Assembly (NCBI RefSeq): GCF_036365525.1
Contig: NC_090372.1
Span: forward strand, 204,762,298 to 204,826,297
Source: Heterodontus francisci
Taxonomy: Eukaryota
Direction: 5' to 3'
DNA: 64,000 nucleotides
This document shows positions 6,870-52,779 of the stretch, in pieces. Position numbers and translations under genes: made by a program. Numbering within the stretch: the stretch's first letter is position 1; every line of letters begins with the position of its first letter. The notes beneath the pieces are model-generated. The model saw only the letters and a list, made by a program, of their open reading frames with translations. It was not told where the DNA came from and made no database searches.

Positions 6870-7400
6870 GCATTCTTATTGTGCCTTTCACAACCTCAAA
6901 ACATGCCAAAGCGCTTTACAGCCAATGAGGTACTTTTGAAGTGTAGTCACTGTTATATTGTAGGAAACGTGGCAGCCAATTTACGCACAGTAAGCTCCCA
7001 CAAACAACAATAAGATAACCGATCAAATAATCTGTTGTAGAGTTCTGAAGAAAGGTCATTGACCTGAAACGTTAACCCTGTTTCTCTCTCCACAAATGCT
7101 GCCTGACCCACTGAGCATTTCCAGAACGTTGTGTTCTTATATCTGCTTTAGTGATGTGGGTTGAGGGATAAGTATTTGTCAGGACACTGGGCAAAACTCC
7201 TCGATCTTCATTGAAAAGTGATATTAGATCTTTTATATGTACCAGAGAGGGCAGTAGGTTTAACATCTCATCCGAATGACAGCACCTCCATCACTATATC
7301 ACTCCCTCAGTTTTGCACTAAAGTACCAGCCTACACTGAGTCTCTGGACCATGGCACGACCCTTTGACCTTCTGATGCAGAGGCGAGAAAGCTGAAGTAC
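6870..7400 (-). mobile_element. Deu-domain SINE (SacSINE1-like) with L2-type tail, interrupted at 7041-7140
   Basis: Tail aaagcgctttacagccaatga.gtacttttgaagtgtagtcactg and core acatctcatccgaa.gacagcacctcc...ctccctcagt. The family recurs at 8393, 17225, 18665 and 60352. Confidence 0.75.
7039..7079 (+). ncRNA. Minimal type-I hammerhead ribozyme motif in a solo Penelope pseudo-LTR fragment (7041-7140)
   Basis: agagtt-CTGAAGA-a-aggtc(att)gacct-GAAA-cg-TT-aaccct. It has the canonical core, a 5-bp stem II, a palindromic ACGT stem III, and stem I with one mismatch. Confidence 0.7.
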
Positions 7401-12204: not shown

Positions 12205-12999
12205 GCTAGAAATATAAAAACAGATAGTAAGAGTTTCTATAGATATTTAAAAAAGAAAAGAGTTAACAAAATGAGCATTGGTCCGATAGAAAGTGAGTCT
12301 GTGGAATTAATAATGGAAAATAAGGAAATGGCAGATGCATTGAACAGGTATTTTGCATCGGTCTTCACCATAGAGGATACAAGTAACATCCCAGACAGTG
12401 CTGTAAATCAGGAAATGGAAGAGAGGGAGGAACTCAAGAAAATTACAATCACCAGGGAAGTGGTACGAAACAAATTGTTGGAGCTGAGGGCTGACAAATC
12501 CCCAGCTCCTGATGGACTTCGCCCTCGGGCCTTAAAAGAAGTGGCTAGTGAGATAGTTGATACATTGGTTTTAATTTTCCAAAATTCCCTAGATTCAGGG
12601 CAGGTTCCATTAGATTGGAAAATAGTGAGTGTAACTCCTTTATTCAAAAAGGGAAGGAGACAGAAAGCAGGAAACTACAGGTCAGTTAGCTTAACATCTG
12701 TCTTCGAGAGAATGTTAGAAGCTAATATTAAAGACATTATAGCAGGGCACTTAGAAAAATTCAAGGTAATCAGGCAGAGTCAACAGAGTTTTGTGAAAGG
12801 GAAATCATGTTTAAGCAATTTATTGGAGTTCTTTGAAGAAGTAACATGTGCTGTGGATAAAGGGGAACCAGTGGATGCACTGTACTTAGATTTCCAGAAG
12901 GCATTTGACCAGGTGCCACATCAAAGGTTATTGCGGAAAATAAAAGCTCATGGTGTAGGGAGTAACATATTGGCATGGATAGAAGATTGGTTAGCTAAC

Positions 13000-15049: not shown

Positions 15050-16920
15050 AGAATTTGTAGAGTGTGGCTTATGCCTGAAGAACCTGATGGAATGTTTTGA
15101 AAAGGCAACTGAAGTAGTGAACAGGGGCATGTCTATGGATGTTATTTATATAGACTTCCAGAAAGCATTTGATAAAGTCCCTCATAAGAGACTATCAGCT
15201 AAAGTTGGAGGTCATGGAATTGAAGTCAAATTATTGACCTGGCTGGGAATTGGCTGAGAGGCAGGAGACAGAGAGTAGGGTTAATGGGCAGATACTCTAA
15301 TTGGCAGGATGTGATTAATGGTGTCCTACAAAGATCGGATGTCCACCAAAGCTACTAAGTATCATCACCTCATTCCATGACAATATGAAAGGCACAATTC
15401 AACATGGTGGCTCCTCATCAGAGCCCTTTCCTATCCTGAGTGGTGTGAAACAGGGCTGTGTTCTCGCACCCACACTTTTTGGGATTTTCTTCTCCCTGCT
15501 GCTTTCACATGCGTTCAAATCCTCTGAAGAAGGAATTTTCCTCCACACAAGATCAGGGGGCAGGTTGTTCAACCTTGCCCGTCTAAGAGCGAAGTCCAAA
15601 GTACGGAAAGTCCTCATCAGAGAACTCCTCTTTGCTGACGATGCTGCTTTAACATCTCACACTGAAGAATGCCTGCAGAGTCTCATCGACAGGTTTGCGT
15701 CTGCCTGCAATGAATTTGGCCTAACCATCAGCCTCAAGAAAACGAACATCATGGGGCAGGATGTCAGAAATGCTCCATCCATCAATATTGGCGACCACGC
15801 TCTGGAAGTGGTTCAAGAGTTCACCTACCTAGGCTCAACTATCACCAGTAACCTGTCTCTAGATGCAGAAATCAACAAGCGCATGGGTAAGGCTTCCACT
15901 GCTATGTCCAGACTGGCCAAGAGAGTGTGGGAAAATGGCGCACTGACACGGAACACAAAAGTCCGAGTGTATCAGGCCTGTGTCCTCAGTACCTTGCTCT
16001 ACGGCAGCGAGGCCTGGACAACGTATGCCAGCCAAGAGCGACGTCTCAATTCATTCCATCTTCGCTGCCTTCGGAGAATACTTGGCATCAGGTGGCAGGA
16101 CTATATCTCCAACACAGAAGTCCTTGAAGCGGCCAACACCCCCAGCTTATACACACTACTGAGTCAGCGGCGCTTGAGATGGCTTGGCCATGTGAGCCGC
16201 ATGGAAGATGGCAGGATCCCCAAAGACACATTGTACAGCGAGCTCGCCACTGGTATCAGACCCACCGGCCGTCCATGTCTCCGTTATAAAGACGTCTGCA
16301 AACGCGACATGAAATCGTGTGACATTGATCACAAGTCGTGGGAGTCAGTTGCCAGCATTCGCCAGAGCTGGCGGGCAGCCATAAAGACAGGGCTAAATTG
16401 TGGCGAGTCGAAGAGACTTAGTAGTTGGCAGGAAAAAAGACAGAGGCGCAAGGGGAGAGCCAACTGTGCAACAGCCCCAACAAACAAACTTCTCTGCAGC
16501 ACCTGTGGAAGAGCCTGTCACTCCAGAATTGGCCTTTATAGCCACTCCAGGCGCTGCTTCACAAACCACTGACCACCTCCAGGCGCGTATCCATTGTCTC
16601 TCGAGATAAGGAGGCCCAAAAGAAAGAAAGACAAAGATCTTGTGTTGGAACCTCAACTATTCACTGTACTTATTATCAACTTAGATGATGGGATAGAAAG
16701 CCACATATCCAACTTTGTTGATGACACAAAGAGAAGCAACATTTGTAAGCTGTGTAAATGGAAGCATAAAATTACAAAGAGATATTGACAGATTAAGTGA
16801 ACGGGCAAAATGTGGCAAATGGATTTCAATGTAGACAAATGTGAGGTCATCCACTTTGGACCAAAAAAGGGTAGAAGAGGGTACTTCCTAAATGGTGAAA
16901 AGCTAGAAACAGTGGAGATC
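15050..16920 (+). mobile_element. Old CR1 RT fragment split by an RTE insertion
   Basis: [13 protein letters not shown] at 15000-15257, continuing as ISNFVDDTK...WQMDFNVDKCEVIHFG at 16631-16920. Confidence 0.8.
15337..16630 (+). mobile_element. Young 5'-truncated RTE LINE with an uninterrupted RT C-terminal ORF (15385-16572) and 9-bp TSD
   Basis: 395-aa open frame with GVKQG, LFADD and a terminal zinc-finger-like motif. (GAAA)n tail. TSD acaaagatc at 15328-15336 and 16631-16639. Confidence 0.95.
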
Positions 16921-22679: not shown

Positions 22680-23660
22680 TACCCTTTTTTACAGCCCTTT
22701 TATCTCCTCCTCACCGCCCAAGGCCCCAAACAGTCCCTCCAGGATAAACAGTGATTTATTTGTACTTCTTTCAATTGAGTATACTGTATTCGTTGCTCAT
22801 AATGCGATCTGCTCTACAGTGGGGACACCAAAAGTAGACTGGGTGACCGCTTTGCGGAGCAACTCTATTCGGTCCGGAAGCATGGCCCCGAGCTCCCAGT
22901 CGTGTGCCATTTTAATTCTCCACCTTGCCCCCACATTGACATCTCTGACCTCGGCCTCATGCAGTGTTCCAATGAAGCTCAACGAAAGCCCAAGGAACAG
23001 CACTTCATCTTTCAATGAGGCACTTTACAGCCTTCCAAGCTCAACTTTGAGTTCAACAATTTTAGATCATAACCTCTACCCTCATTTTGTTACAGTTATC
23101 TTTGGTGGTTTGGTGTTTTTCCCTCTTGTTTCTCTATTAATTACTTTGCTTTTGGACGGCAGCTAGTCAGGATCCTGCCATTCACAGCTCCTTTAGACAT
23201 ATTATTTATTCCTTTGAAAGTTCTGTTGAAAGGTCACAGATCTGAAACGTTAACTCTGTTTCTTTCTCCACAGATACTGTTGGACCTACTGAGTATTTCC
23301 AGCATTTTCTGTTTTTATTTTAGATTTCCAGCATCTGCAGTATTTTGCTTTTGTCTTTTGTTTCTTTACTTGTCCCATTACCACTCCCTTTGGCCTTACA
23401 ACATGAAATCTTTTGTCATTTAATCTCTCTTGCCTTTTACCCAATCACAGACCTTCCATTATGTTCTTCTTCCCACCCTCCCCCTCTCACTTGCTCAAAA
23501 CAGATTACATTTCTAACTTCTCCCAGTTCTCATGAAAAATCACAGAGCTGAAATGTTAACTCTGTTTTTCTCTCTACAGATGCTGCCTGACCTGTTGAGT
23601 ACTTCCAACGTTTTCTGTTTTTATTTCAGGTTTCCAGCATCCGCAGTATTTTGCTTTTAT
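22680..23660 (+). mobile_element. Decayed Penelope-like element with two tandem pseudo-LTR units
   Basis: 22700-23060 is homologous to the GIY-YIG coding region at 24700-25095. The terminal module repeats at 23219 and 23525 (306-bp period), each copy with a degenerate hammerhead motif. Confidence 0.85.
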
Positions 23661-24351
23661 ATATCGGTTACCACATTGGAAGGATATTACAACCCTATGA
23701 CTACTGGGTCAGTAATGGAAAATAAAAAGTGTAATATTAACAGTTATAATACTGGGGGGTTCTTCAGTATCCTAAGATAGACTGGAATAGGCTATGGGCC
23801 CTGACACATTCCAGCAATAGTATTGAAGACTTATACTCCAGAACTAGCCGTGCCCCCTAGCCAAGCTGTTCCAGTGCAGCAACAACACTGGCATCTACCC
23901 GCCAATGGGGAAAATTGCCCATGTATGTCTTGTACACAATAAGCAGGACAAATCCAACCTGGCCAATTACCACCCTATCAGTCTACTCTCGATCATTAGC
24001 AAAGTGATGGAAGATGTCGTCGACTGTACTATCAAGCTGCACTTGCTCAGCAATAACCTGCTCAGTGACGCTCAGTTTGGGTTCTGCCAGGCCATTCATC
24101 TCCTGACCTAATCACAGCCATTGTCCAAACATGGACAAAAGAGCTGAACTCAAGAGGTGAGGTGAGAGTGACTGCCCTTGACAACAAGGCAGCATTTGAC
24201 CAAGCCCTAGAAAAACTGGAATCAATGGGACTCAAGGGACAAATTCTCTGCTGGTCGGAGTCATACCTAGCACAAAGGAAGATTCTCCCAGTTTCTCCGT
24301 CTCCGACGCATCTGCTCTGATGATGCTACCTTCCATGACGGTGCTTCTGAT

Positions 24352-25095
24352 ATGACCTTTTTCCTCAACCGAGGATTTCCCCCCACTGTGGTTGACAGGG
24401 CCCTCAACCGTGTCCGGCCCATTCCCCGCAGTTCTACCCTCACCCCTTCCCCTCCCTCCCAGAACCGTGACAGGGTTCCCCTTGTCCTTACTTTTCACCC
24501 CATCAGCCTCCATATCCAAAGGATCATCCTCCGCCATTTCCGCCACCTCCAGCGTGATGCCACTACCAGTCGCATCTTCCCCTCCCTTCCCCTGTCAGCA
24601 TTCCGAAGGGATCATTCCCTCCGCGACACCCTGGTCCACTCCTCCATTACCCCCACCACCTCGTCCCCGTCCCATAGCACCTTCCCCTGCAATCGCAAGA
24701 GGTGTAATACCTGCCCATTTACCTCCTCTCTCCTCACTATCCCAGGCCCCAAACACTCCTTTCAGGTGAAGCAGCGATTTACTTGTACTTCTTTCAATGT
24801 AGTATACTGTATTCGCTGCTCACAGTGTGGTCTCCTCTACATTGGGGAGACCAAGCGCAGACTGGGTGACCGCTTTGCGGAACATCTCCACTCAGTCCGC
24901 AAGCAGGACCCTGAGCTTCCGGTTGCTTGCCATTTCAACACTCCCCCCTGCTCTCATGCTCACATCTCTGTCCTGGGATTGCTGCAGTGTTCCAGTGAAC
25001 ATCAACGCAAGCTCGAGGAACAGCATCTCATCTACCGATTAGGCACACTACAGCCTGCCGGACTGAACATTGAGTTCAATAATTTCAGAGCATGA
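24352..25095 (+). CDS. PLE RT-thumb/linker plus GIY-YIG endonuclease (N-terminally truncated transposon ORF)
   Basis: CNRKRCNTC linker and NVVYCIRCSQCGLLYIGETKRRLGDRFAEH...VACHF...E..LI..L.T..P.GLN. Confidence 0.85.
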   Translation: MTFFLNRGFPPTVVDRALNRVRPIPRSSTLTPSPPSQNRDRVPLVLTFHPISLHIQRIILRHFRHLQRDATTSRIFPSLPLSAFRRDHSLRDTLVHSSITPTTSSPSHSTFPCNRKRCNTCPFTSSLLTIPGPKHSFQVKQRFTCTSFNVVYCIRCSQCGLLYIGETKRRLGDRFAEHLHSVRKQDPELPVACHFNTPPCSHAHISVLGLLQCSSEHQRKLEEQHLIYRLGTLQPAGLNIEFNNFRA

Positions 25096-25452
25096 CAGCC
25101 CCCCATTTTATTTTCATTTTTAGTTATTCTTTCTTCCTTTTTATTTTTACATTCATTTTTACATTTTTTACAATCTTTTTTTTGCATTTATTTCATTTCA
25201 TCTTAGTTTGTTCAGTTTGCTTACCCACTGTTTTTTTTCAGGTTTGCACTTGCTGCTGTTCAATATTCAGTGTATTAACACCTAATCTGTACTAATGCTT
25301 TGTCTTTCAACACACTATTAACATATTGTTTGCCTTTGCTCCGTGACCTTTTGGTCAGCTATGTGGCCTGGTCCAATCTAGACCACATTTGTTATCTCTT
25401 GCCCCACCCCCACCTCACTTGCTTATAACCTGTGACTTTTCTAATATTTGTC

Positions 25453-25489
25453 AGTTCCGATGAAGGGTCACTGACCCGAAATGTTAACT
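25453..25489 (+). ncRNA. Minimal hammerhead-like motif (CCGATGA core variant) in the PLE terminal repeat
   Basis: agtt-CCGATGA-a-gggtc(act)gaccc-GAAA-tg-TT-aact. Confidence 0.65.
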
Positions 25490-26715
25490 CTGCTTCTCTT
25501 TCCACAGATGCTGCCAGACCTGCTGAGTGGTTCCAGCATTTCTTGTTTTTATTTCAGATTTCCAGCATTCACAGTATTTTGCTTTTATACAAAGGAAGAT
25601 TGTTGTGGTTGTTGGAGGTCAATCATCTCAGCCCCAGGAAATCACTGTAGGAGTTCCTCAGGGTAGTGTTCTAGGCCCAACCATTTGCAGCTGCTTCATT
25701 AATAACTTTCAAAAGGTCAGAAGGGGGATGTTCACTGATGATTACACAATGTTCAACACTATTCACGACTCCTCAGTTACTGAAGCAGTCTGTGTCCAAA
25801 TGCAGCAGGACCTGGATAATATCCAGGCTTGGGCCAATAAGTGGCAAGTAACATTAGTGCCATACAAGTGCCAGGCAATGACCATCTCAAACAATAGAGG
25901 ATCTAACCATTTCCCCTTGATGTTCAATGGCATTACCATCGCTGAATCCCCCACTATCAACATCTTGAGGGTTACCATTGACCAGAAACTGAACTGGACC
26001 AGCCACATAAATACCGTGGCTATAAGAACAGGTCAGAGGCTGGGAATTCTGTGGAGAGTAACTTACCTGCTGTTTCTCCAATGCCTGTCCATCATCTACA
26101 AGGAGTCAGGGGTGTGATGGAATACTGTCCACCTGCCTGGGTGGGTGCAGCTCCAACAACATTCAGGAAGCTTGACACCATCCAGGACAAAGCAACCTGC
26201 TTGATTGGCACTCCATCCACTACCTTAAACATTCACTCCCTTCACCACCGATGCACAGTGGCAGCAGTGTGTATCATCTCCAAACTGCACTGCAGCAACT
26301 CACCAAGGCTCCTTAGACAGCAACTTCCAAACCTGCGAGCTCTGACACCTAGAAGGACAAGGACAGCAGATGCATGGGAACAGCATCACCTGCAAGTTCC
26401 CCACCAAGCCACACACCATCCTGACTTGGAACGATGTCGCCGGTGCTGGGTCAAAATCCTGGAACACCCTTCCGAACAGCACTGTGGGTGTACCTACACC
26501 CTGAGGACTGCAGCGATTCAAGATTCACCACCTTCTCAAAGGCAATTAGGGTTGGGCAATAAATGCTGTCCCAGCCAGCGCCACCCACATACCATGAACG
26601 AATAAAAAAACCTAATCCTCATTGGACAAACATCATTGTTCATTCATTGTTGCTGGCCCTGGAATTCCCTACCGAGCACCATTCTGGGAGGACCATCGCT
26701 GTTTGGATGGCAGCA

Positions 26716-27935
26716 GCTCAAGGAGCCAGTGGATGTGGTTTATTTGGATTTTCAGAAGGCTTTCGATAAAGTCCCACATAAGAGATTAGCGTGCAAAATT
26801 AAAGCGCATGGGATTGGGGGTAGTGTATTGCGATGGATAGAAAATTGGTTGGCAGACAGGAAACAAAGAGTAGGGATAAATGGGTCTTTTTCCGAATGGC
26901 AAGCAGTGACTAGTGGGGTACCTCAGGGATCAGTGCTAGGACCCCAGCTACTCACAATATACATTAATGATTTAGATGAGGGAACTAAATGTCATATCTC
27001 CAAATTTGCAAATGACACAAAACTGGGTGGGAGGGTGAGTTGTGAGGAGGATGCAGAGAGGCTTCAGGGTGATTTGGACAAGTTGTGTGAGTGGGCTAAT
27101 GCATGGCAGATGCAGTATAATGTGGATAAATGTGAGGTTATCCACTTTGGTAGCAAAAACAGGAAGGCAGATTATTATCTGAACGGCTATAAACTGAGAG
27201 AGGGGAATATGCAGCGAGACCTGGACATTCTCGTACACCAGTCGCTGAAAGTAAGCATGCAGGTCCAACAGGCGGTAAAAAAGGCAAATGGTACATTGGC
27301 CTTCATAGCGATAGGATTCGAGTACAGGAGCAGGGAGGTCTTGCTGCAATTATACAGGGCCTTAGTGAGGCCACACCTGGAATACTGTGTGCAGTTTTGG
27401 TCTCCTTATCTGAGGAAGGATGTTCTTGCTATGGAGGGAGTGCAGCGAAGGTTTACCAGACTGATTCCTGGGATGGCGGGACTGACCTATGAGGAGAGAT
27501 TGAGTCGGTTAGGATTATATTCGCTGGAGTTCAGAAGAGTGAGGGGGGATCTCATAGAAACCTATAAAATTCTAACAGGACTTGACAGGGTAGATGCAGG
27601 AAGGATGTTCCCGTTGGTGGGGGAGTCCAGAACCAGGGGTCATAGTCTAAGGATACGGAGTAAACCTTTCAGGACTGAGATGAGGAGAAATTTCTTCACA
27701 CAGAGAGTGGTGAGCCTATGATATTCTCTACAACAGAAAGCAGTTGAGGCCAAAACATTGTATGTTTTCAAGAAGGAGTTAGATATAGCTCTTCGGTCTG
27801 AAGGGATCAAAGGGTATGGGGCGAAAGCGGGAACAGGTTACTGAGTTGGATGATCAGCCATGATCATAATGAATGGCGGAGCAGGCTCTAAGGGCCGAAT
27901 GGCTTACTCCTGCTCCTATTTTCTATGTTTCTATG
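26716..27935 (+). mobile_element. 5'-truncated CR1 inserted in a LINE tail
   Basis: RT frame open from 26716 to 27721, with an FAND substitution and a premature TGA. Tail ttctatgtttctatg. The host tail resumes at 27936. Confidence 0.92.
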
Positions 27936-28064
27936 AACAGATCAACCACCACTTTCTCAGGGCAACTCAGGATGCTCAATAAATGTGGTCCTGCCCATCT
28001 CTCCCAGAGCCCAAGAGCAAATCTTTTTTAAAGTACCAGTTAAGGAACTATATGGGTAAGAAAG

Positions 28065-29056
28065 AAGCCATTGTTTTTGATCCGGACTCCAAACTCCGTT
28101 TCCTAGCTACCGACTCCATCCCTCTCCTGGCAGCAGTCTGAGATTAAGCGTCTGTTCGTAGCCTTGGTGTCACATTTGACCCGAGCTTCCGACCTCATAT
28201 TTGTGCCATCACTAAGGCTGCCTATTTCCACCTCCATAACATCACCCAACCTTGCCCTGTCTCAGCTGATCTGCTGCTGAAACCCTCATTCAAGCTTTTG
28301 TTACCTCTAGACTTGACTATTCCAACGCACTCATAGCTGGTCTCCCATATACTACTGTTAATTTGAGGCCATCCAAAACAGTGCTGCTCGTGTCTTAACT
28401 CACACCAAGTCCCATTTTCCTGTCACCCCTGTGCTTGCTGACCTGCGTTGGCTGCCGATCAAGCAACGTCTTGATTTTAAAATTCGTCCCTCCCTATCTC
28501 TGTAATCTCCTCCAGCCCCACAACCTTCCAAGATATCTGCGCTCCTCTAATTCTGGCCTCTTGTGCATCCCTGATTTTAATCGTTCCACCATTGGTGGCT
28601 GCGCCTTTCGTTGCCCAGGCCCCAAGCTCTGGAATACTCTCCCTACATTTCTCCGCCTCTCCACCTCACTTTCCTCCTTTAAGGCACTCCTTAAAACCTA
28701 CCTCTTTCACCAAGCTTTTGATCATCTCCTTCTGTGGCTCAGTATCATACCTTGTGTTAAAGGTCTGCAAAGGAAACCCGACCGAGCCCGGACCCTGAAG
28801 TGCGACCCGACCCGAAGCCGACACATGTCGTCGGGCCCCGTCGAGGTCAGGTCGGGTAGTAGGCCTGTACCCATGTACTGATGTACAGGCCTCCTACCTA
28901 ACTGGACCCCGATGGGACCTGACGTCATGTGTCGGCTTCGGGTTGGGTCGGGTCGCACTTCCGGGTCTGGCATTCAGGCTCGGTCGGGTTTCCTTTGCAG
29001 GCTCCTGTTTTATTACTTTCAAGGTGCTATATAAATCTAAGTTGTTGTTTTTGTTG
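28065..29056 (+). mobile_element. L2 LINE 3' portion, with its 3' UTR interrupted by a foldback element
   Basis: AFVTSRLDYSN-type coding, GGCAF..PGPKLWN.LP...FK.LLKTYLF, and tail gctatataaat..aagttgttg. Confidence 0.85.
28761..29000. mobile_element. Palindromic MITE/foldback (~240 bp, ~105-bp inverted arms)
   Basis: ctgcaaaggaaacccgaccgagcc...gtaggcctgtac is mirrored by gtacaggcctcc...ggctcggtcgggtttcctttgcag. Repeated cccgac motifs. Confidence 0.85.
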
Positions 29057-29179
29057 CAATGAGCTAAATGGTCTCATTAGGTATTGTAATTTTTATGATT
29101 CTCTGATCCAGGTAGATTGTGGTGTCCACAGAAAATATATCAATCCTTACTATCCTCCCCAGACCAGGCTACATACCTG

Positions 29180-32100
29180 CTGGCCAGGGAAGTGGTACTA
29201 AACAAATTGTTGGAGCTGCGGGCTGACAAGTCCCCGGGTCCTGATAGTCTTCATCCTAGGGTCTTAAAAGAGGTGGCTAGTGAGATAGTTGATGCGTTAG
29301 TTTTAATTTTCCAAAATTCCCTAGATTCGGGGAAGGTTCCATTAGATTGGAAAATAGCAAATGTAACTCCTTTATTCAAAAAGGGAGGGAGACAGAAAGC
29401 AGGAAACTACAGGCCAGTTAGCTTAATATCTGTCTTAGGGAAAATGTTAGACTGTATTATTAAAGACATTATAGCAGGACACTTCAAAAAATTCAAGGCA
29501 ATCAGGCAGAGTCAACATGTTTTTGTGAAAGGGAAATCATGTTTAACCAATTTATTGGAGTTCTTTGAGGGAGTTACATGTGCTGTGGATAAAGGAAAAC
29601 CAGTGGATGTATTGTACTTAGATTTCCAGAAGGCATTTGATAAGGTGACACATCAAAGGTTATTGCGGAAAATAGAAGCTCATGGTGTAGGGGGTAACAT
29701 ATTGGCATGGATAGAATATTGGCTAGCTAACAGGAAAAAGAGAGTAGGCATAAATGGGTCATTTTCTGGTTGTCAAGATATAACGAATAGTGTGCCACAG
29801 GGATCTGTGCTGGGCCTCAACTTTTTACAATTTATATAAATGACTTGGATGAAGGGACCGAAGGTATGGTTGCTAAATTTGTTGATGACACAAAGATAGG
29901 TAGGAAAGTAAGTTGTGACGAGGACATAAGGAGGCTGCAAAGGGATATAGATAAGTTAAGTGAGTGGGCAAAGATCTGGAAAATGGAATATAATGTGGGA
30001 AAGTGTGAAATTGTCTATTTTGGCAGGAAGAATAAAAAAGAAGCATATTATTTAAATGGTAAGAGATTGCAGAGCTCTGAGATGCAGAGGGATCTGGGTG
30101 TCCTAGTGCATGAATCGCAAAAGGTTAGTATGTAGGTACAGCACGTAATTAGGAAAGCAAATAGAATGTTATCATTTATCGCAAGGGGAATTGAATATAA
30201 AAGTAGGAAGGTTATGTTTCAGCTTTACAGGGCATTGGTGAGACCACATAGAGTTATACAGCACAGAAACAGGCCCTTCGGCCCATCATGTCCGTGCCGG
30301 CTATCAAGCACCTTTCTATTCTAATCCCATTTTCCAGCACTTGGCCTATAGCCTTGTATGCTATGGCATTTCAAGTGCTCATCTAAATACTTGTTAAATA
30401 TTGTGAGGGTTCCTGCCTCTACCACCCCTTCAGGCAGTGTGTTCCAGATTCCAACCACACTCAGGGTGAAAAATATTTTCCTCAAATCCCCTCTAAACCT
30501 CCTGCCCCTTACCTTGAATCCATGCTCCCTGGTTATTGACACCTCTGCTAAGGGAAAAAGTTTCTTCCTATCTATCCTATCAATGCCCCTCATAATTTTG
30601 TAGACCTCAATCAGGTCCCTCCTCAGCCTTCTCTGCTCTAAGGAAAACAACCCTAGCCTATCCAGTCTCTCTTCATAGCTGAAATACTCCAGCCCAGGCA
30701 ACATCCTGGTGAATCTCCTTTGCACCCTCTCCAGTGCAATCACATCCTTCCTATAGAGTACACAGTACTCCAGCTGTGGCCTAACTAATGTTTTATACAG
30801 CTCCATCATAACCCAACTTCTCTTATATTCTATGCCTTGGCTAATAAAGGAAAATATCCCATATGCCTTCCTAACTGCCTTATCTACCTGTGCTGCTGCC
30901 TTCAGTGATCTATGGACAAGTACACCAAGGTCCCTCTGACCTTCTGTACTTCCTAGGGTCCTACCATCCATTGTATATTCCCTTGCCTTGTTAGTCCTCC
31001 CAAAATGCATCACCTCACACTTCTCAGGATTAAATTCCATTTGCCACTGCTCCGCCCATCTTACCAGCCCATCCATATCGGCCTGTAATCGAAGGCTTTC
31101 CTCCTCACTATTTACGACACCACCAATTTTTGTGTCATCTGCGAACTTACTGATCATACCTCCTCTTTTCACATCTAAATCATTAATGTACACTACAAAC
31201 AGCAATGGTCCCAGCACTGATGCCTACGATACACCACTGGTCACAGGCTTCCACTCGCAAAAACAACCCTCGACCATCACCCTCTGCCTCCTGCCACTAA
31301 GCCAATTTTGGATCCAATTTGCCAAATTGCCCTGGATCCTATGTGCTCTTACTTTCTTGACCAATCTCCCTTGCGCGACCTTATCAAAAGCCTCACTGAA
31401 GTCCATGTAGACAATATCAACTGCTTTACCCTCATCTACACACCTAGTCACCTCCTTGTAAAATTCAATCAAGTTTGTTAGACACAATCTTCCCCTGACA
31501 AAACCATGCTGTCTATCCCTGATTAATCCCTGCCTCTCCAAGTGGAGATTAATTCTGTCCCTCAGAATTTTTTCCAATAGTTTTCCTACCATTGATGTTA
31601 GACTCACTGGCCTAAAATTACCTGGTTTATGCCTGCTACCCTTCTTGAATAATGGTACCACATTTGCTGTCCTCCAGTCCTCTGGTACTTCTCCTGTGGC
31701 CAGAGAGGATTTGAAAATTTGTGTCAGAGCCCCTGCTATCTCCTCCCTTGCCTCACATAGCAGCCTGGGATACATCTCATCTGAGCCTGGGGATTTATCC
31801 ACTTCTAAGCCTGCTAAAACAGCTTCTTCCCTTTTAATGCTAATTTGTTCAAGTTTCTCACAATCCCCCTCCCTGATCTCTACACCTACATCATCCTTCT
31901 CCATAGTGAACAGAGATGAAAAGTAATCATTTAAAACCACACCTATGTTCTCCAGCTCCACACACAGATTGCCACTTTAGTCCCTAATGGGCCCTACTCT
32001 TTCCCCGGTTATCCTCTTGACCTTAATCTACTTATAAAACGCCTTGGGATTTTCCTTTATCTTGCCCACCAGTGTTTTTTCATGTCCCTGCGTCGTTTTC

Positions 32101-33040: not shown

Positions 33041-33770
33041 GTGTATATGGCCTGTATCACTGAGAAGGTACATCCCACATATCTGTTTCCTGGTCATCTA
33101 CCTTTCCCCATGGTAAATATAGTGGGGCATTTGTCGGTCTAAGCAAGTTATACACATTTGTATGTGCATCAGGAGAAGTGTGTTACCCCTGCCTTCCTAT
33201 TCCACATGGACTGCAGCAGTTCAAGAAGGGGGCTCACGGGCAATTAGGGATGAGCAACAAATGCTGGTCTTGCCAGTGACGCCCATATCCCATGAAACAA
33301 ATAAAAAAAATCCTCCCTTTGCCTCTCCCCCATACAATTAAAGAGAACCTTTGACCAGTGCACAAACAGGCAGGTCCCAGCTCCCCAGTGGAAACAGGCT
33401 GCATACTGTCGAAACTTCACCCAGACCTAACACGCAAAGTGTGTTTAACGTACAGGCATCTAAACGGTTGGAAGTGAAGGTGATCCCATAACATGCTCAG
33501 TGGTTAGCTCTACTCAATCAGCAGACATATAATTGAATACTTAGCCAACGCTTTTACAGCTGAGTCTCAATCTGAATGCATGGAACAAATTGCGGCAAAT
33601 TGTGAACTGAGGCCATACCACAGTTGGCTGTGGTCTTGCCCTGTACTGGTTACATACAGCAAGAGAATGCAAACCCACCAACCCTACACTAAGGGTACAG
33701 CAAATGAAACTACAGTACATCAGTGTAAAAGTGTTCCCAATCTTTGCTAAACAGACTAGAGTGTGAACAG

Positions 33771-34003
33771 AAACAAAAACAAGAAATGCTGGAATCACTC
33801 AGCAGGTCTGGCAGCATCTGTGGAAAGAGAAGCAGAGTTAAAGTTTCGGGTCAGTGACCGGAACTCAGTTCCGAAGAAGGGTCACTGACCCGAAACGTTA
33901 ACTCTGCTTCTCTTTCCACAGATGCTGCCAGACCTGCTGAGTGATTCCAGCATTTCTTGTTTTTGTTTCAGATTTCCAGCATCTGCAGTATTTTGCTTTG
34001 TTA
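33771..34003 (+). mobile_element. Stand-alone inverted Penelope pseudo-LTR pair (foldback) with 14-bp TSD
   Basis: Arms 33771-33865 and 33867-33968 are near-perfect inverted repeats of the module at 25453-25588. TSD tagagtgtgaacag at 33757-33770 and 34004-34017. Confidence 0.92.
33867..33903 (+). ncRNA. Minimal hammerhead-like motif (CCGAAGA core variant)
   Basis: agtt-CCGAAGA-a-gggtc(act)gaccc-GAAA-cg-TT-aact. Confidence 0.65.
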
Positions 34004-35549
34004 TAGAGTGTGAACAGGTTCAGAACCTCAGTGCAGTAAACCAGAGGACATGAGCAAACCAGCCTCAGATCAATGTGAACACGATCGAGGTGTACTCAAC
34101 TTAGTCGCCAGAGTCAAATGGCTCACAGTGGTATTGGATTCAAATCCCTTTCCATGCTGAGTTTAGTGCCTGACTCTGGGGTCACTGATTAAATGCACAC
34201 CATCAGAACAAGAGGAGCTAGTCTGTTGTATGACACTTATCCAGTTGATAACAGTGACTCTTAAGTAGGGCATCTCAGTGGGATATTTCCACAGCTATAA
34301 TTGTTGTTGTTCTGCACACCCTCACATCACCAATGTTGCACCATTTTAAAAGAGACGGTCTTTGAAACAACCCATTTACCAGGCACGTGAACTTTGCTCT
34401 GCATCATAAGTCACGACCCTTCCTGCTCAGGGGGAGAATCTGAACAACATTGGAAGTTCCAAGGGCGTGATTTATGCACAGAATTTAAACTGAGGTCAAA
34501 TTTGGCCAGATATTAGGCCTGGACTTCCCAGTGCTGTCACTATCAATTAAAATAGAAAGGACATGGTTAAAAAGTTGTTTGGTACACCATTTAACACGAT
34601 GTACATTTATCAGAAATCAGAGCCCTGAAAGTTAAGTCTGAGTCTGATGGAGCCTGATTAAATGTGCATTTGGCTTCAATTTCTGCGTTAGTTTTTCTGC
34701 CAATTCGTATAAGGACATTAATTAAGAACTGAATTTGTTCCCTTTTCCAAGTGCAAATTAGACTGAAGTTGCTGTTTGCTTTGTTCGGGCAGTTTGCTCT
34801 ACTGTTTTAAGCCCTTTCTTGGGGCCTTGCAAGTGTCATCATAAAAAGAAGTGTTTCAATTTCATGCTTGGCCATCACACACGGAGCCTGCAATCCCAAC
34901 TGAGTCCCTTCAGATTCTTCCCTGGGAAAATCGTTGCTGAGGATACAGCACAGATTCGCGAAGAGGAGGTAATTGTACTCAGGCCTGAAAGTGAAATGAA
35001 TGAAAGATTTACAAGATAAAAAGAGCCTGTCAGGAGACAATGACAGACAGAGCCCGCCACGAGATGATGATTCTGCCTTCATTTCCACTCTGCTATCTCG
35101 ATGTCACTTCATGTCCGTGACCTTACTTTTTAATTATACCGGATGTTGAGTTTGAGGCCTAGTGCTCTGCAATTCAGCTAAAGCAAAGAAGAGGTTGAAA
35201 TGATGTCTTTGTTTAGAGGTAACCATTCGGAAACCGCACGTCCAAGGTTTCAGTTTGAATCTGGCGCATATGTCTCTTTACATAGTCAAGCCTGAGTAGA
35301 TCAAAGGGGGATCCTCTGTCCCCTCCGGAGCCAAAGCTTTATCTGAAATATTTAACAGAAATACTGGTACATATTTCCCTCTGTCCGCTGCTGTAAATAT
35401 TCTACCCCTCAACATGCCTTTTGGGACTGGTTTAAGTTTCTACTGGCACTAATTTGTTTTCTGCTGATTCTGTTAAATCAATCGCATTGACTTTGCATTT
35501 ATAAAGTTGAACCACAATTTACAGATGTCTGCCTAGCTTGGACTTCATA

Positions 35550-41014: not shown

Positions 41015-43752
41015 CCCAATACCGAACATTTGTTCCTGCTGGGGGACTTTAACGCCAGGGTTGGGGTCAACCATGACTCATGGTCCTCCTGCTTTGGGCG
41101 CTATGGCATTGGAAGGATGAATGAAAATGGACAGAGACTGCTTGAGTTGTGTACCAATCACAACCTCTGCATATCCAACTCGCTCTTTCATACTAAACCC
41201 TGTCACCAGATTTCATGGAGGCACCCAAGATCACGTTGTTGGCACCAGCTGGACCTCATCGTCACAAGGCGAGCCTCTTTAAACAGCGTTCAAATCACAT
41301 GCAGCTTCCACAGTGCGGACTGCGACACCGACCACTCCCTGGTGTGCAGCAAGGTTAGACTCAAACCAAAGAAGCTGCATCACTCCAAGCAGAAGGGCCG
41401 ACCGTGCATCAACACTGGCAGAATTTCTTATCCACAGCTGTTACATAAATTTTTTAATTCACTTGAAAAAGCCCTTCAAAACACTCCTACAGGGGATGCA
41501 GAGACGAAGTGGGCCCACATCAGATACGCCATCTATGAGTCAGCTATGACCACCTATGGCAAACGTGTGAAGCAGAATGCTGACTGGTTTCAATCTCACT
41601 TTGAAGAGCTGGAACCTGTCATAGCCGCTAAGCGATTGCACTGTTGAACTACAGAAAGCCCCCAGGGAGTTAACATCCGTAGCACTTAAAGTAGCCAGAA
41701 GCGCTGCACAAAGAACAGCCAGGCGCTGCGCAAATGACTACTAGCAACACCTATGTAGTCGTATTCAGTTGGCCTCCGACACCGTAAACATCAGAGGAAT
41801 GTATGATGGCATTAAGAGAGCTTTTGGGCAAACCATCAAGAAGATCGCCCCCCTCAAGTCTAAATCAGGGGACACGATCACTGACCAATGCAAGCAAATG
41901 GACCGCTGGGTGGAGCACTACCTAGAACTGTACTCCAGGGAAAATGTTGTCACTGAGACCGCCCTCAATGCAGCCCAGTCTCTGCCAGTCATGGATGAGC
42001 TGGATGAACAGCCAACAAAATTGGAACTCAGTGATGCCATTGATTCTCTAGCCAGTGGAAAAGCTCATGGGAAGGACGGCATTACCCCTGAAATAATCAT
42101 GAGTTCCAAGCCTGCTATACTTTCAGCACTCCATGAACTGCTTTGCCTGTGCTGGGATGAGGGAGCAGTACCACAGGACATGCGCGATGCCAATATCATC
42201 ACCCTCTATAAGAACAAGGGTGACTGCGGTGACTGCAACAATTACCATGGAATCTTCCTTCTCAGCATAGTGGGAAAAGTCTTCGCTCGAGTCCTTTTAA
42301 ACAGGCTCCAGAAGCTGGCTGAGCGTGTCTACCCTGAGGCACAGTGTGGCTTTCGAGCAGAGAGATCCACCATTGACATGCTGTTCTCCCTTCGCCAGCT
42401 ACAGGAGAAATGCTGCTAACAACAGATGCCCGTCTACATTGCTTTCATTGGTCTCACCAAAGCCTTTGCTACTAAGTCCACCAAAGCTACTAAGTATCAT
42501 CACCTCATTCCACAACAATATCAAAGGCACAATTCAGCATAGCGACACCTCATCAGACCCCTTTCCTATCCTGAGTGGTGTGAAACAGGGCTGTGTTCTC
42601 GCACCTACACTGTTTGGAATCTTCTTCTCCCTGCTGCTTTCACATGCGTTCAAGTCTTCAGAAGACGGAATTTTCCTCCACACAAGATCAGATGGCAGGT
42701 TGTTCAACCTTGCCCGTCTAAGAGCGAAGACCACAGTCGGAGGGTCCTCATCAGGGAACTCCTCTTTGCTGACGATGCTGCATTAACATCCCACACAGAA
42801 GAGTGTCTGCAGAGACTCATTGACAGGATTGCAGCTGCCTGCAACGAATTTGGCCTAACCATCAGCCTCAAGAAAATGAACATCATGGGACAGGACTCAG
42901 AAATGCTCCATCCATCAATATTGGTGACCACGCTCTGGAAGTGGTTGAGGAGTTCACATACCTAAGCTCAACTATCACCAGTAACCTGTCTCTCGATGCA
43001 GATATCAACAAGTGCATGGGAAAGGCGTCTGCTGCTATGTCCAGACTGGCCAAGAGAGTGTGAGAAAATGGCACACTGACACGGAACACAAAAGTCCGAG
43101 TGTATCAAGCCTGTGTCCTCAGTACCTTGCTCTATGACAGTGAAGCCTGGACAATGTATGTCAGACAAGAGCAACGTCTCAATTCATTCCATCTTCGCTG
43201 CCTCTGGAGAATCCTTGGCATCAGGTGGCAGGACCGTATCTCCAACACAGAAGTCCTCGAGGCTGCCAACATCCCCAGCATATATACCCTACTGAGTCAG
43301 CAGTGCTTGAGATGGCTTGGCCATGTGAGCCGCATGGAAGATGGCAGGATCCCCAAGGACACATTGTACAGCGAGCGCGTCACTGGTATCATACCCACCC
43401 GCCGTCCATGTCTCCGCTTTAAAGACGTCTGCAAACGCGACATGAAGTCCTGTGACATTGATCACAAGTCGTGGGAGTCAGTTGCCAGTGATCGCCAGAG
43501 CTGGCAGACAGCCATTAAGGCGGGGCTAAAGAGGGGCGAGTCGAAGAGACTTAGCTGTTGGCAGGAAAAAAGACAGAAGCGCAAGGGGAGAGCCAACTGT
43601 GTAACAGTCCCGACAACCAATTTTATCTGCAGTGACTGTGGAAGAGTCTGTCACTCTAGAATTGGCCTTTATAGCCACTCCAGGCACTGCTTCACAAACC
43701 ACTGACTACCTCCAGGCGCTTACCTCTCGAAACAAGGAGGCCAAAGAAGAAG
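41015..43752 (+). mobile_element. Longer, decayed RTE LINE (APE C-half plus RT)
   Basis: LLGDFNARVG, W.HPRS..WHQLD, TDH, LYKNKGD..DCNNY.GI and QCGFR motifs, then the RT C-terminus. Several frameshifts. (GAA)n tail. Confidence 0.93.
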
Positions 43753-46846: not shown

Positions 46847-49800
46847 TTAATGTCGGTGATCCTGATGTCGGTGATCCTGATGTCGGTAATGCTGGTGTCG
46901 GTGATTCTAATGTCGGTGATTCTGATGTCAGTGAACCTGATGTCAGTGATTCTGATGTCAGTGATCTTGGTGTCAGGGAACCTGATGTCGGTGATCCTGG
47001 TGTCACTGATCTTGATGTCAGTGATCATGATGTTAGAGATCCTGATGTCAGTGATTCTGATGTCAGTGATCTTGATGTCAGTGATCTTGATATCAGTGAT
47101 CTTGAAGTCGGTGATCCTAATGTCAGTGATCTTGATGTCAGTATCTTAATGTCAGTGATCTGGTGTCGGAGATCTTAATGTCAGTGATCCTGATGTCAGT
47201 GATCCTGGCGTCAGTGGTCTTAATGTCAGTGATCTTGAGGTCAGTGATCCTGGCGTCAGTGATCCTGGCGTCAGTGATCTTAATGTCAGTGATCTTGAGG
47301 TCAGTGATCTTGGTGTTGGTGATCTTAATGTCAGTGATCTAGATGTCAGTGATCCTGATGTCAGTGATCTTGATGTCGGTGATCTTGATGTCGGTGATCT
47401 TAATGTCAGTGATCTGGATGTCAGTGATCTTGATGTCGGTGATTCTGATGTCAGTGATCCTGATGTCGGTGATCTTGATGTCAGTGATCCTGATGTCAGT
47501 GTTCTTGTTGTCGGTGATTCTGATGTCAGTGATCTTGATGTCAGTGATCTTGATGTCAGTGATCCTGATGTCAGTGTTCTTGATGTCAGTGATCCTGATG
47601 TCGGTGATCTTGATGTCGGTGATTCTGATGTCGCTGATCTTGTTGTCGGTGATTCTGATGTCGGTGATCTTGATGTCAGTGATCCTGGTGTCAGTGATCC
47701 TGATGTCAGTGATCCTGGTGTCAATGATCTTGATGTCAGTGATCCTGATGTCAGTGATCCTGTTATCGGTGATTCTGATGTCAGATATCCTGATGTAGGT
47801 GATCTTGATGTCGGTGATTCTGATGTTGGTGATCTTGTTGTCGGTGATCCTGATGTCAGTAATCTTGATGTCAGTGATCTTGAATTCAGTGATCCTGATG
47901 TAGGTGATCTTGATGTCGGTGATTCTGATGTCAGTGATCCTGATGTCGGTGATCTTGATGTCGGTGATTCTGATGTCAGTGATCCTGATGTCGGTGATCT
48001 TGATGTCGGTGATCTTGATGTCAGTGATCCTGATGTCAGTGATCCTGTTGTCGGTGATTCTGATGTCAGATATCCTGATGTAGGTGATCCTGTTGTCGGT
48101 GATTCTGATGTCAGATATCCTGATGTAGGTGATCTTGATGTCGGTGATCCTGATGTAGGTGATCTTGATGTCGGTGATTCTGATGTCAGTGATCCTGATG
48201 TCGGTGATCTTGATGTCGGTGATTCTGATGTCAGTGATTCTGATGTCGGTGATCTTGATGTCGGTGATCTTGATGTCGGTGATTCTGATGTCAGTGATCC
48301 TGATGTCGGTGATCTTGATGTCGGTGATCTTGATGTCAGTGATCTTGAATTCAGTGATCCTGATGTAGGTGATCTTGATGTCGGTGATTCTGATGTCAGT
48401 GATCCTGATGTCGGTGATCTTGATGTCGGTGATCTTGATGTCAGTGATCTTGAATTCAGTGATCCTGATGTAGGTGATCTTGATGTCGGTGATTCTGATG
48501 TCAGTGATCCTGATGTCAGTGATCTTGATGTCGGTGATCTTGATGTCGGTGATCTTAATGTCAGTGATCTGGATGTCAGTGATCTTGATGTCGGTGATTC
48601 TGATGTCAGTGATCCTGATGTCGGTGATCTTGATGTCAGTGATCCTGATGTCAGTGTTCTTGTTGTCGGTGATTCTGATGTCAGTGATCTTGATGTCAGT
48701 GATCTTGATGTCAGTGATCCTGATGTCAGTGTTCTTGATGTCAGTGATCCTGATGTCGGTGATCTTGATGTCGGTGATTCTGATGTCGCTGATCTTGTTG
48801 TCGGTGATTCTGATGTCGGTGATCTTGATGTCAGTGATCCTGGTGTCAGTGATCCTGATGTCAGTGATCCTGGTGTCAATGATCTTGATGTCAGTGAGCC
48901 TGATGTCAGTGATCCTGTTATCGGTGATTCTGATGTCAGATATCCTGATGTAGGTGATCTTGATGTCGGTGATTCTGATGTTGGTGATCTTGTTGTCGGT
49001 GATCCTGATGTCAGTAATCTTGATGTCAGTGATCTTGAATTCAGTGATCCTGATGTAGGTGATCTTGATGTCGGTGATTCTGATGTCAGTGATCCTGATG
49101 TCGGTGATCTTGATGTCGGTGATCTTGATGTCAGTGATCCTGATGTCAGTGATCCTGTTGTCGGTGATTCTGATGTCAGATATCCTGATGTAGGTGATCC
49201 TGTTGTCGGTGATTCTGATGTCAGATATCCTGATGTAGGTGATCTTGATGTCGGTGATCCTGATGTAGGTGATCTTGATGTCGGTGATTCTGATGTCAGT
49301 GATCCTGATGTCGGTGATCTTGATGTCGGTGATTCTGATGTCAGTGATCCTGATGTCGGTGATCTTGATGTCGGTGATCTTGATGTCGGTGATTCTGATG
49401 TCAGTGATCCTGATGTCGGTGATCTTGATGTCGGTGATCTTGATGTCAGTGATCTTGAATTCAGTGATCCTGATGTAGGTGATCTTGATGTCGGTGATTC
49501 TGATGTCAGTGATCCTGATGTCGGTGATCTTGATGTCGGTGATTCTGATGTCAGTGATCCTGATGTCGGTGATCTTGATGTCGGTGATCTTAATGTCAGT
49601 GATCTGGATGTCAGTGATCTTGATGTCGGTGATTCTGATGTCAGTGATCCTGATGTCGGTGATCTTGATGTCAGTGATCCTGATGTCAGTGTTCTTGTTG
49701 TCGGTGATTCTGATGTCAGTGATCTTGATGTCAGTGATCCTGATGTCAGTGTTCTTGATGTCAGTGATCCTGATGTCGGTGATCTTGATGTCAGTGATCT

Positions 49801-52629
49801 TGATGTCGGTGATTCTGATGTCGCTGATCTTGTTGTCGGTGATTCTGATGTCGGTGATCTTGATGTCAGTGATCCTGGTGTCAGTGTTCCTGATGTCAGT
49901 GATCCTGGTGTCAATGATCTTGATGTCAGTGATCCTGATGTCAGTGATCCTGTTGTCGGTGATTCTGATGTCAGATATCCTGATGTAGGTGATCTTGATG
50001 TCAGTGATTCTGATGTTGGTGATCTTGTTGTCGGTGATCCTGATGTCAGTAATCTTGATGTCAGTGATCTTGAATTCAGTGATCCTGATGTAGGTGATCT
50101 TGATGTCGGTGATTCTGATGTCAGTGAGCCTGATGTCGCTGATCTTGATGTCGGTGATTCTGATGTCAGTGATCCTGATGTCGGTGATCTTGATGTCGGT
50201 GATCTTGATGTCGGTGATCTTGATGTCAGTGATCCTGATGTCAGTGATCCTGTTGTCGGTGATTCTGATGTCAGATATCCTGATGTAGGTGATCCTGTTG
50301 TCGGTGATTCTGATGTCAGATATCCTGATGTAGGTGATCTTGATGTCGGTGATTCTGATGTTGGTGATCTTGTTGTCGGTTATCCTGATGTCAGTAATCT
50401 TGATGTCAGTGATCTTGAATTCAGTGATCCTGATGTAGGTGATCTTGATGTCGGTGATTCTGATGTCAGTGATCCTGATGTCGGTGATCTTGATGTCGGT
50501 GATTCTGATGTCAGTGATCCTGATGTCGGTGATTCTGATGTCAGTGATCCTGATGTCGGTGATCTTGATGTCGGTGATCTTGATGTCAGTGATCTTGAAT
50601 TCAGTGATCCTGATGTAGGTGATCTTGATGTTGGTGATTCTGATGTCAGTGATCCTGATGTCGGTGATCTTGATGTCGGTGATCTTGATGTCAGTGATCC
50701 TGATGTCAGTGATCCTGTTGTCGGTGATTCTGATGTCAGATATCCTGATGTAGGTGATCTTGATGTCGGTGATTCTGATGTTGGTGATCTTGTTGTCGGT
50801 GATCCTGATGTCAGTAATCTTGATGTCAGTGATCTTGAATTCAGTGATCCTGATGTAGGTGATCTTGATGTCGGTGATTCTGATGTCAGTGATCCTGATG
50901 TAGGTGATCTTGATGTCGGTGATTCTGATGTCAGTGATCCTGATGTCGGTGATCTTGATGTCGATGATCTTGATGTCAGTGATCCTGATGTCAGTGATCT
51001 TGATGTCAGTGATCATGATGTCGGTGATTCTGATGTTGGTGATCTTGTTGTCGGTGATTCTGATGCCAGTGATCTTGATGTCAGTGATCCTGATGTCGGT
51101 GATCTTGATGTCGGTGATCTTGATGTCAGTGATCCTGATGTCAGTGATCCTGTTGTCGGTGATTCTGATGTCAGATATCCTGATGTAGGTGATCTTGATG
51201 TCGGTGATTCTGATGTTGGTGATCTTGTTGTCGGTGATCCTGATGTCAGTAATCTTGATGTCAGTGATCTTGAATTCAGTGATCCTGATGTAGGTGATCT
51301 TGATGTCGGTGATTCTGATGTCAGTGATCCTGATGTCGGTGATCTTGATGTCGGTGATTCTGATGTCAGTGATCCTGATGTCGGTGATCTTGATGTCGGT
51401 GATCTTGATGTCGGTGATTCTGATGTCAGTGATCCTGTTGTCGGTGATTCTGATGTCAGATATCCTGATGTAGGTGATCCTGTTGTCGGTGATTCTGATG
51501 TCAGATATCCTGATGTAGGTGATCTTGAAGTCGGTGATCCTGGTGTCAGTGATCTTGATGTCAGTGATCCTGGTGTCGGTGATCTTGATGTCAGTGATCT
51601 TGATGTTGGTGGTGATCTTGATGTCAGTGATCTTGATGTCAGTGATCCTGATGTCGGTGATCCTGATGGTCAGTGATCTTGTTGTCGGTGATTCTGATGT
51701 CAGTGATCCTAATGTCGGTGATCTTGATGTCAGTGATCCCGGTATCGGTGATCTTGTTGTCGGTGATCCTAATGTCAGTGATCTTGATGTCAGTGATTCT
51801 GATGTCAGTGATCCTGATGTCGGTGATCTTGATGTCAGTGATCTTGATGTCAGTGATTCTGATGTCAGTGATCCTGATGTCGGTGATCTTGATGTCAGTG
51901 ATCCTCATGTAGTTGGTCTCGAAGCCGGTGATCCTGATGTCAGTGATCTTGATGTCAATGATCTTGATGTCAGTGATCTTGATGTCAGTGATCTTGATGT
52001 CGGTGATCTTGATGTCAGTGATCTTGAAGTCAGTGATCCTGGTGTCAGTGATCTTGATGTCAGTGATCCTGGTGTCGGTGATCCTGGTATCGGTGATCTT
52101 GTTGTCGGTCATCCTGATGTCAGTGATCTTGATGTCAATGATCCTGATATCAGAGATCCTGGTGTTATTGATTCTGATGTCAGTGATGCTCGTGTCGGTG
52201 ATCTTGATGTCGGTGATCCTGGTGTCAGAGATCCTGGTGTTATTGATTCTGATGTCAGTGATGCCCGTGTCGGTGATCTTGATGTCGGTGATCCTGGTGT
52301 CAGATATCCTGGTGTCGGTGATTCTGATGTCAGTGATGCTCGTGTCGGTGATCTTGATGTCGGTGATCCTGGTGTCAGAGATCCTGGTGTTATTGATTCT
52401 GATGTCAGTGATGCTCGTGTCGGTGATCTTGATGTCGGTGATCCTGGTGTCAGATATCCTGGTGTCGGTGATTCTGATGTCAGTGATCCTGGTGTCGGTG
52501 ATTTTGATGTCAGTGATTTTTATGTCGGAGATCCTGGTGTCGGTGATTCTGATGTCAGTGATCCTGGTGTCGGTGATTTTGATGTCAGTGATTTTTATGT
52601 CGGAGATCCTGGTGTCATTGATCCTGATG
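46846..52629. repeat. 15-bp minisatellite (GATGTCRGTGATYYT)n, about 385 units, with higher-order repeats
   Basis: Directly visible. Indel-free register from ~47161 to ~51608 with more diverged edges. Marker variants recur at 1155- and 1035-bp spacing. Confidence 0.98.
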
Positions 52630-52779
52630 CCCTACCTGGAGTGGAGCAGAGGCAGTTGGGAGCGGGAGCACCATAAGTACAGCACGGGGATCGGAGTGTG
52701 GTCTTTCCAACCTCCAGTGGAACAGAGGCTGTCAGGGATCGGATCACGTCCTTTCCTATCTGAAGCAGAGGCAGCCTTA

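Follow-up and report, generated by a model that had tools for sequence, protein, structure and literature searches.

The window, a stretch of 64,000 nucleotides of Heterodontus francisci DNA, carries a 233-bp insert that is bounded on both sides by TAGAGTGTGAACAG, an exact 14-bp target-site duplication (TSD). The insert consists of two terminal repeats (pseudo-LTRs, or pLTRs) of a Penelope-like element (PLE) that face each other head to head around a single base, and only the right-hand copy continues into the tail of the element (Table 1). Positions within the repeat are given as q numbers, where q1 is 33867, the first base of hammerhead stem I in the right arm.

Table 1. Features of the insert and related PLE copies in the window
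Feature	Position	Strand	Basis or remark
Left TSD	33757..33770	.	14 bp, exact repeat
Inverted, tail-less PLE pLTR copy, q1-q102	33771..33865	-	Alignment; 95 bp
Centre base C	33866..33866	.	Sequence; parent context TGTC/AGTT
Direct pLTR copy from q1	33867..33968	+	102 bp; q1 is the 5'-end hotspot and putative transcription start
Minimal type I hammerhead motif	33867..33903	+	Sequence and constrained folding; cleavage predicted only
Hammerhead stem I	33867-70/33900-03	+	Sequence, constrained folding
Hammerhead core CCGAAGA, C at position 4	33871-77	+	Sequence
Extra A; stem II; GAAA	33878; 33879-91; 33892-95	+	Sequence, constrained folding
Palindromic ACGT helix III	predicted cut after 33899	+	Sequence; prediction
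PLE tail, this arm only	33969..34003	+	35 bp
Right TSD	34004..34017	.	14 bp
ORF fragment of longer copy	24271-25092		
pLTR with tail of longer copy	25451-25585		95% to right arm
Older pLTR copies	7041-7124, 23219-23351, 23524-23663		81-84% identity; matches begin at about q1

A longer, 5'-truncated copy of the same PLE family is present at 24271-25589. Inspection by eye of the open frames in the window identified no host exons near the insert. LINE-type frames resembling reverse transcriptase (RT) were recognized, also by eye, in many places (for example, 2031-3302, 9597-12246, 15319-16569, 26606-31976 and 41015-43702). A long tandem repeat of low complexity, probably a minisatellite, occupies ~47150 to 52700; its strands are strongly skewed, and both contain open frames of more than 1,500 codons.

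Structure of the insert and its hammerhead motif

Read on the minus strand, the left arm aligns to the right arm from 33867. It lacks seven nucleotides, GAAGAAG (q7-q13, corresponding to 33873-33879 of the right arm), and has a single substitution, G to T at 33842 (q31), within the ACGT helix III. Its outer end coincides with the inner of the two points at which copies of the family end on the 3' side. An initial annotation, made from the letters alone, had described the exact TSD, the arms meeting around base 33866, the 35-bp tail at 33969-34003 and the altered left arm, and alignment bears out this description. The central C may be the -1 base of the parent, carried by the right arm, or may have been added to the left cDNA, either without a template or opposite the cap; the two origins are indistinguishable in sequence.

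The TSD is not a chance repeat, because TSDs of 13-16 bp flank 36 of 52 compact sister hairpins, a pool that includes the insert and was drawn non-randomly from pattern-selected loci. TSDs of 8-12 bp were found for nine members of this pool and none for seven, and the mode of 14-15 bp accounts for 30 of the 52. Over q1-137 the right arm differs from its parent unit (see below) at five positions, three of them within the last four bases, and the insertion is therefore young. The left flank is single-copy in the assembly. Among public assembled contigs (4 of 22 runs were compared), the repeat is covered and the unique flanks hardly are.

The q31 substitution lies at a CpG site, and the identical G-to-T change is found at 3 of 170 matched sites, versus 5 transitions. 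This change, two bases before the predicted ribozyme cut, also occurs in one arm only in four hairpins (L001, L006, L092 and L106), which is odd for CpG decay, the numbers being small.

The right arm holds a hammerhead motif, as had been proposed, judging from its sequence and from constrained folding; cleavage is a prediction. The motif comprises stem I (AGTT/AACT), the core CCGAAGA, one extra A, stem II (GGGTCA-C-TGACCC), GAAA, CG and TT. It thus has the minimal type I layout, with core boxes, helices I and II, the extra base and a palindromic helix III, and the left arm does not. U is the usual base at core position 4 of hammerheads; C occupies it in 121 of 149 motif matches from the fetched loci. 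Stem II pairing is kept in most variants, with G-C to A-T changes. A scan of the insert with Rfam models, which had been suggested as a check, gave no hammerhead family at E<=10 and only generic hairpin matches under the gathering scores.

Like the minimal type I hammerheads of metazoan PLEs (PMC4209133), the right-arm motif combines a short helix I and a long helix II with an extra base after position 9, G-C at 10.1/11.1 and a palindromic 15.2/16.2 pair. It differs from those in having C at core position 4 and U at position 17, and in that the two motifs of the insert are adjacent and one is broken. The motifs recorded in that 2014 survey are mostly solo, with opposite-strand pairs 100-700 bp apart.

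Folding of the whole insert gives one hairpin of -178 kcal/mol (z = -23.9), and none of 200 shuffled sequences was equally stable. Any transcript of the locus is predicted to form this dsRNA hairpin. Adopting the hammerhead fold would cost ~1 kcal/mol in a solo arm versus ~30 kcal/mol within the full insert, and a read-through transcript is therefore predicted to be cleavage-dead. The ribozyme appears to be a passenger in this insert, its motif buried in the single predicted hairpin.

The parent element and its hairpins

The 6.0-Gb genome has 20,968 exact matches to a 58-mer from the right arm and 49,638 matches to an internal 34-mer. The proposed PLE origin was upheld by the finding of a tandem parent with an intact RT/GIY-YIG open reading frame (L051; G000:C1:23217000-23226999). 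Near-identical full-length units of 3,290 bp are repeated there, a tandem arrangement of the kind that forms pLTRs in PLEs, where a tail of 30-40 bp is optional. The ORF is unbroken for 916 codons from the first Met, and the motifs DKG, YIDD and VY..C..C...YIG are visible in it. Pfam matches to RVT_1 (E 6e-6) and GIY-YIG (E 0.002) are both below the curated cut-offs, and a PDB sequence search with the ORF gave 0 hits. From its sequence, the parent is an autonomous, endonuclease-containing (EN+) PLE that encodes RT plus a C-terminal GIY-YIG domain in a single intact ORF. The ORF also includes the linker CNRRRCNTC (CX4CX2C), which conforms to the CX2-5CxxC linker that precedes the endonuclease and defines the Neptune and Nematis clades (PMC8557442); judging by its linker motif, the parent would be of Neptune/Nematis type. 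This PLE was recently active and left thousands of one-off insertions. The tandem array itself is a candidate recent source locus.

The ends of copies were surveyed in the first 100 of the 49,638 34-mer matches, which cover the first 12 Mb of contig C1 at genome-average density and retain both duplicates (L066 and L067) of one insertion. Their 3' ends are bimodal, with 53 at q94-112 and 47 at q133 or beyond, and match the pair of RT start sites on either side of the tail in an Anolis element (PMC11167929). At the 5' side, 54 copies begin at q-3 to q19, 5 at -30 to -4 and none at -140 to -31. Another 37 begin further upstream, 3 at q20-43 and 1 at the pattern edge; among the upstream group, apparent ends between -219 and -292 mostly arise where T-tract indels break the alignment, and these were scored simply as beyond -140. 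The rate of 5' ends per base in the hotspot is ~30-fold above that upstream. Hairpin arms make up 27 of the 54 hotspot starters, and the other 27 are not hairpin arms. Matches to the older pLTR copies in the window likewise begin at about q1, which makes the hotspot older than this subfamily.

The parent has TATAAT at -29 and TC/AGTTC at q1, where the slash marks the position before q1. A second young subfamily keeps TATAA and CT/AGTTC, and in four older copies an A/T box near -30 survives. The TATA-like box and the initiator-like TCAGTT near q1 fit the TATA and initiator consensus motifs, and this arrangement suggests that transcription may start at q1.

No copy in the survey begins at q34, which immediately follows the predicted ribozyme cut. 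RNA cleaved by the hammerhead was accordingly rejected as the template (0 of 100). The absence of such starts accords with a report that uncleaved RNA is the template of the Anolis PLE protein (PMC11167929).

The exact centre junction of the insert occurs once in the 6.0-Gb genome. Head-to-head pairs number 3,827 with 0-30 nt between stem II motifs and 837 with 31-60 nt, a total of 4,664 same-subfamily foldbacks with varied centres, and a looser pattern for older or decayed copies found 957 further hairpins. The listed centres vary widely, and the longer ones are mostly filled by short repeats of the 5' end, not by upstream sequence. Identical centres were found on different subfamily markers (L002 and L009; L003 and L005). 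Since centres vary and the recurring ones differ in subfamily background, each hairpin was built anew at insertion.

The pattern of the 7-nt loss is present at three places in the genome, namely the insert, a hairpin with a look-alike junction (L094) and a long, non-inverted copy (L096); absence of the catalytic core is not conserved. The initial annotation had offered two readings, an extreme 5' truncation with inversion or a tiny non-autonomous, retrozyme-like family, and had proposed counting copies with the same centre and deletion. That count, one exact junction and three instances of the deletion pattern, speaks against the family, as do the identical centres on different markers; the truncation with inversion gains support from the 5'-end pile-up and the sister hairpins. 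A family defined by the exact junction was rejected since the junction is found only once, and a subfamily without the 7 nt was rejected because the pattern has only three occurrences; of the two outside the insert, one is a hairpin. A lone accident or random truncation was likewise rejected, given thousands of such hairpins and 5' ends that pile up at one site.

Origin of the two arms

One arm has the tail and the other lacks it in 51 of the 52 compact hairpins, versus ~50% expected; the remaining hairpin is tail-less. A subfamily marker is common to both arms in 42 of 47 scorable pairs, versus 29% by chance. A second set of 51 pairs, also pattern-selected and non-random, includes longer pairs; one of the longer pairs, L031, has two tails, and one pair, L002, has none. 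Within this set the 5' extent of the tail-less arm exceeds that of the tail arm by 5 nt or more in 18 pairs, the tail arm is the longer on that side in 8, and the arms are level in 23. The arms of L050 reach -866 and -2120, a difference of ~1.25 kb, and because each has private sequence, neither can simply have been copied from the other as DNA. Asymmetry of this kind argues for two cDNAs, primed separately on one source, rather than for a cDNA that snaps back on itself. The palindrome of stem II blurs arm starts at q13-18, however, and asymmetry could also be mimicked where part of a hairpin centre was deleted later.

The insert is a one-off insertion of PLE terminal repeats and was probably made as it inserted, by head-to-head joining of two short cDNAs whose synthesis had run off the 5' end of the RNA. 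Transcription would start at q1, at the initiator-like TCAGTT and with the TATA-like box at ~-29. The protein would bind near the 5' pLTR-ORF junction and nick both target strands ~14 nt apart. Each nick would then prime RT on RNA of the same source, from an internal site at either q~100 or q~137, and both cDNAs would stop at or near q1, as strong-stop DNA does. End joining with microhomology and short filler would close the centre. Survival of only one cDNA would leave a solo pLTR, and longer copies would require read-through or circular templates. The observations on which this scheme builds are the parent, the copy numbers, the two 3' ends, the pile-up at q1, the one-tail rule, the TSD and the unique centres.

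Both parts of this scheme have precedents elsewhere. In L1 twin priming, two target-primed cDNAs produce an inversion, and retroviral strong-stop DNA forms when RT runs off the 5' end of the RNA. However, the primers in L1 twin priming copy different parts of the RNA, whereas the arms of the insert are both copies of one 100-nt segment. The PLE protein of Anolis, a predicted dimer, cleaves and extends both strands in vitro, with sense RNA as template and with starts at two tail-bounding sites (PMC11167929). These data come from a Penelope/Poseidon element, whereas the parent has a linker of Neptune/Nematis type.

Taken by itself, the insert locus fits snap-back equally well, as its tail arm reaches q1. 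A cDNA started at the tail would reach the 5' end, fold back through stem II or a short palindrome and be copied, with the second arm cut or stopped at q~100. Such a course explains the identity of the arms and the one-tail rule, many centres do fall on palindromes (for example, stem II or AATATT), and Arkhipova et al. (PMC3846280) have invoked self-priming, with an antisense template, to account for PLE junctions of the head-to-head type. However, 18 of 51 pairs have private sequence in each arm, clear cases being L050 and L182 and, in the compact pool, L164, L017 and L128, and neither arm of such a pair could be copied from the other without later deletion. Solo copies also end at the same two 3' points, and the Anolis enzyme uses sense RNA to extend both strands (PMC11167929), so that we regard snap-back as rather unlikely. 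Two cDNAs might also have been joined as proposed while the pile-up at q1 reflects a splice acceptor (CAG/TT), another RNA cut or stalling of RT at the ribozyme fold. A YAG and a branch-like CTAA[CT] motif are kept in young and old copies, and an intron in D. virilis ends at helix I (PMC4209133). The additional G expected of a capped start is not a signal specific to q1: G is enriched before q1 (2,947 cases versus 2,940 for A+T, where 9 of 30 sampled loci with A/T are read-through copies), but also before q4 (37 G, 40 C and 23 A among the first 100 listed). Against splicing, a junction with element sequence from further upstream is present in just 1 of the 94 copies that are not read-through, and that junction does not use a GT donor, on which basis a spliced upstream exon was rejected; moreover, 60 sampled copies share no upstream exon, a mere ~10 nt separate the branch-like A from the AG, and the A/T box at -30 is left unexplained. 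Stalling of RT should place ends 3' of the fold (q25-37), yet only one of 100 lies there, at q29. A start of the copies at q1 for any of these reasons is distinctly improbable.

The thousands of similar hairpins with their own TSDs, and the few centres that recur, would also be expected of a self-propagating non-autonomous family, retrozyme-like or MITE-like, in which the entire hairpin is transcribed and reinserted. Yet the centre of the insert is unique, and recurring centres stand on different subfamily backgrounds. The head-to-tail ribozyme tandem that defines non-LTR retrozymes is missing, the hairpin has neither the upstream TATA-like box nor the ORF-proximal sequence beyond the tail, and its ribozyme is buried. 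Propagation is largely refuted for this locus, and we give it very little credence.

Strong-stop DNA could perhaps be the main output of this PLE, a proposal that we consider slightly less likely than not: synthesis would start ~100 or 137 nt from the capped 5' end, with both target strands primed simultaneously from the two sites of one RNA, to yield solo pLTRs or hairpins, and only read-through or ribozyme-circularised RNA would give long copies. If true, a single scheme would account for pLTR, tail and head-to-head inversion alike, and the PLE would have seeded the genome with thousands of near-perfect 100-bp hairpins.

Relation to known elements

The inverted pLTR, the one-sided tail, the palindromes at junctions and the TSD are already published features of PLEs. 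The insert matches an inverted pLTR insertion in its head-to-head copy, one-sided tail and TSD. Insertions of EN+ PLEs with an inverted, 5'-truncated pLTR, such as Pen2a_Av (PMC3846280; PMC8557442), share with it a head-to-head pLTR whose inverted arm is the shorter, a one-sided tail of 30-40 bp, a palindromic junction and a TSD. Unlike those, the insert has no ORF or direct pLTR pair and consists only of ~100 + 137 nt. The hairpins described here also differ from the published examples in their thousands of copies and in junctions concentrated at one site, and their TSD mode is 14-15 bp, versus 8-10 bp in Adineta (PMC3846280).

PAc, a Poseidon element of Anolis carolinensis (PMC11167929), likewise has two tail-bounding RT start sites, a pLTR hammerhead and an uncleaved RNA template. 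The parent differs from PAc in its CX4CX2C linker and in that the first ATG of its long ORF is at q173, after the tail, and not in stem II. The main text of PMC11167929 makes no mention of 5' run-off or head-to-head joining.

Non-LTR retrozymes (bioRxiv 10.64898/2026.07.22.740005) resemble the insert in being non-coding and PLE-derived and in carrying a type I hammerhead. They are head-to-tail tandems with at least two complete ribozymes, whereas the insert is head-to-head with one intact motif, and a retrozyme identity was rejected for this reason. The insert also shows no sign of onward copying, unlike the retrozymes described there.

The origin of tandem and inverted repeats in PLEs has been called an open question (PMC8557442). 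In the literature covered, which excluded most subscription journals and supplements, we found no account of strong-stop products or twin priming in PLEs. A single locus of this kind is ordinary and matters little, and it is the set that informs the mechanism of PLE insertion. In this young family, junctions formed separately by the thousand, the ORF is intact, and a candidate transcription start and two RT start sites are available, which makes twin priming, snap-back and antisense self-priming testable against one another. The hairpins are also predicted to give rise to dsRNA and palindromic DNA.

Some minor observations concern the hairpins and the leader of the element. Two distant hairpins (G000:C1:87126352 and C1:127347824) have the same unusual centre filler, possibly through onward copying or segmental duplication. 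Both RT start points (33867-34003 in the window; L051:7794-7620, minus strand) lie in T-rich tracts before a YAG (q105 and q141), which resemble splice acceptors. A 5'-UTR intron like that of Penelope in D. virilis is possible for this PLE. At q56, upstream of the ORF, an ATG opens the same frame, which stops before the ORF begins.
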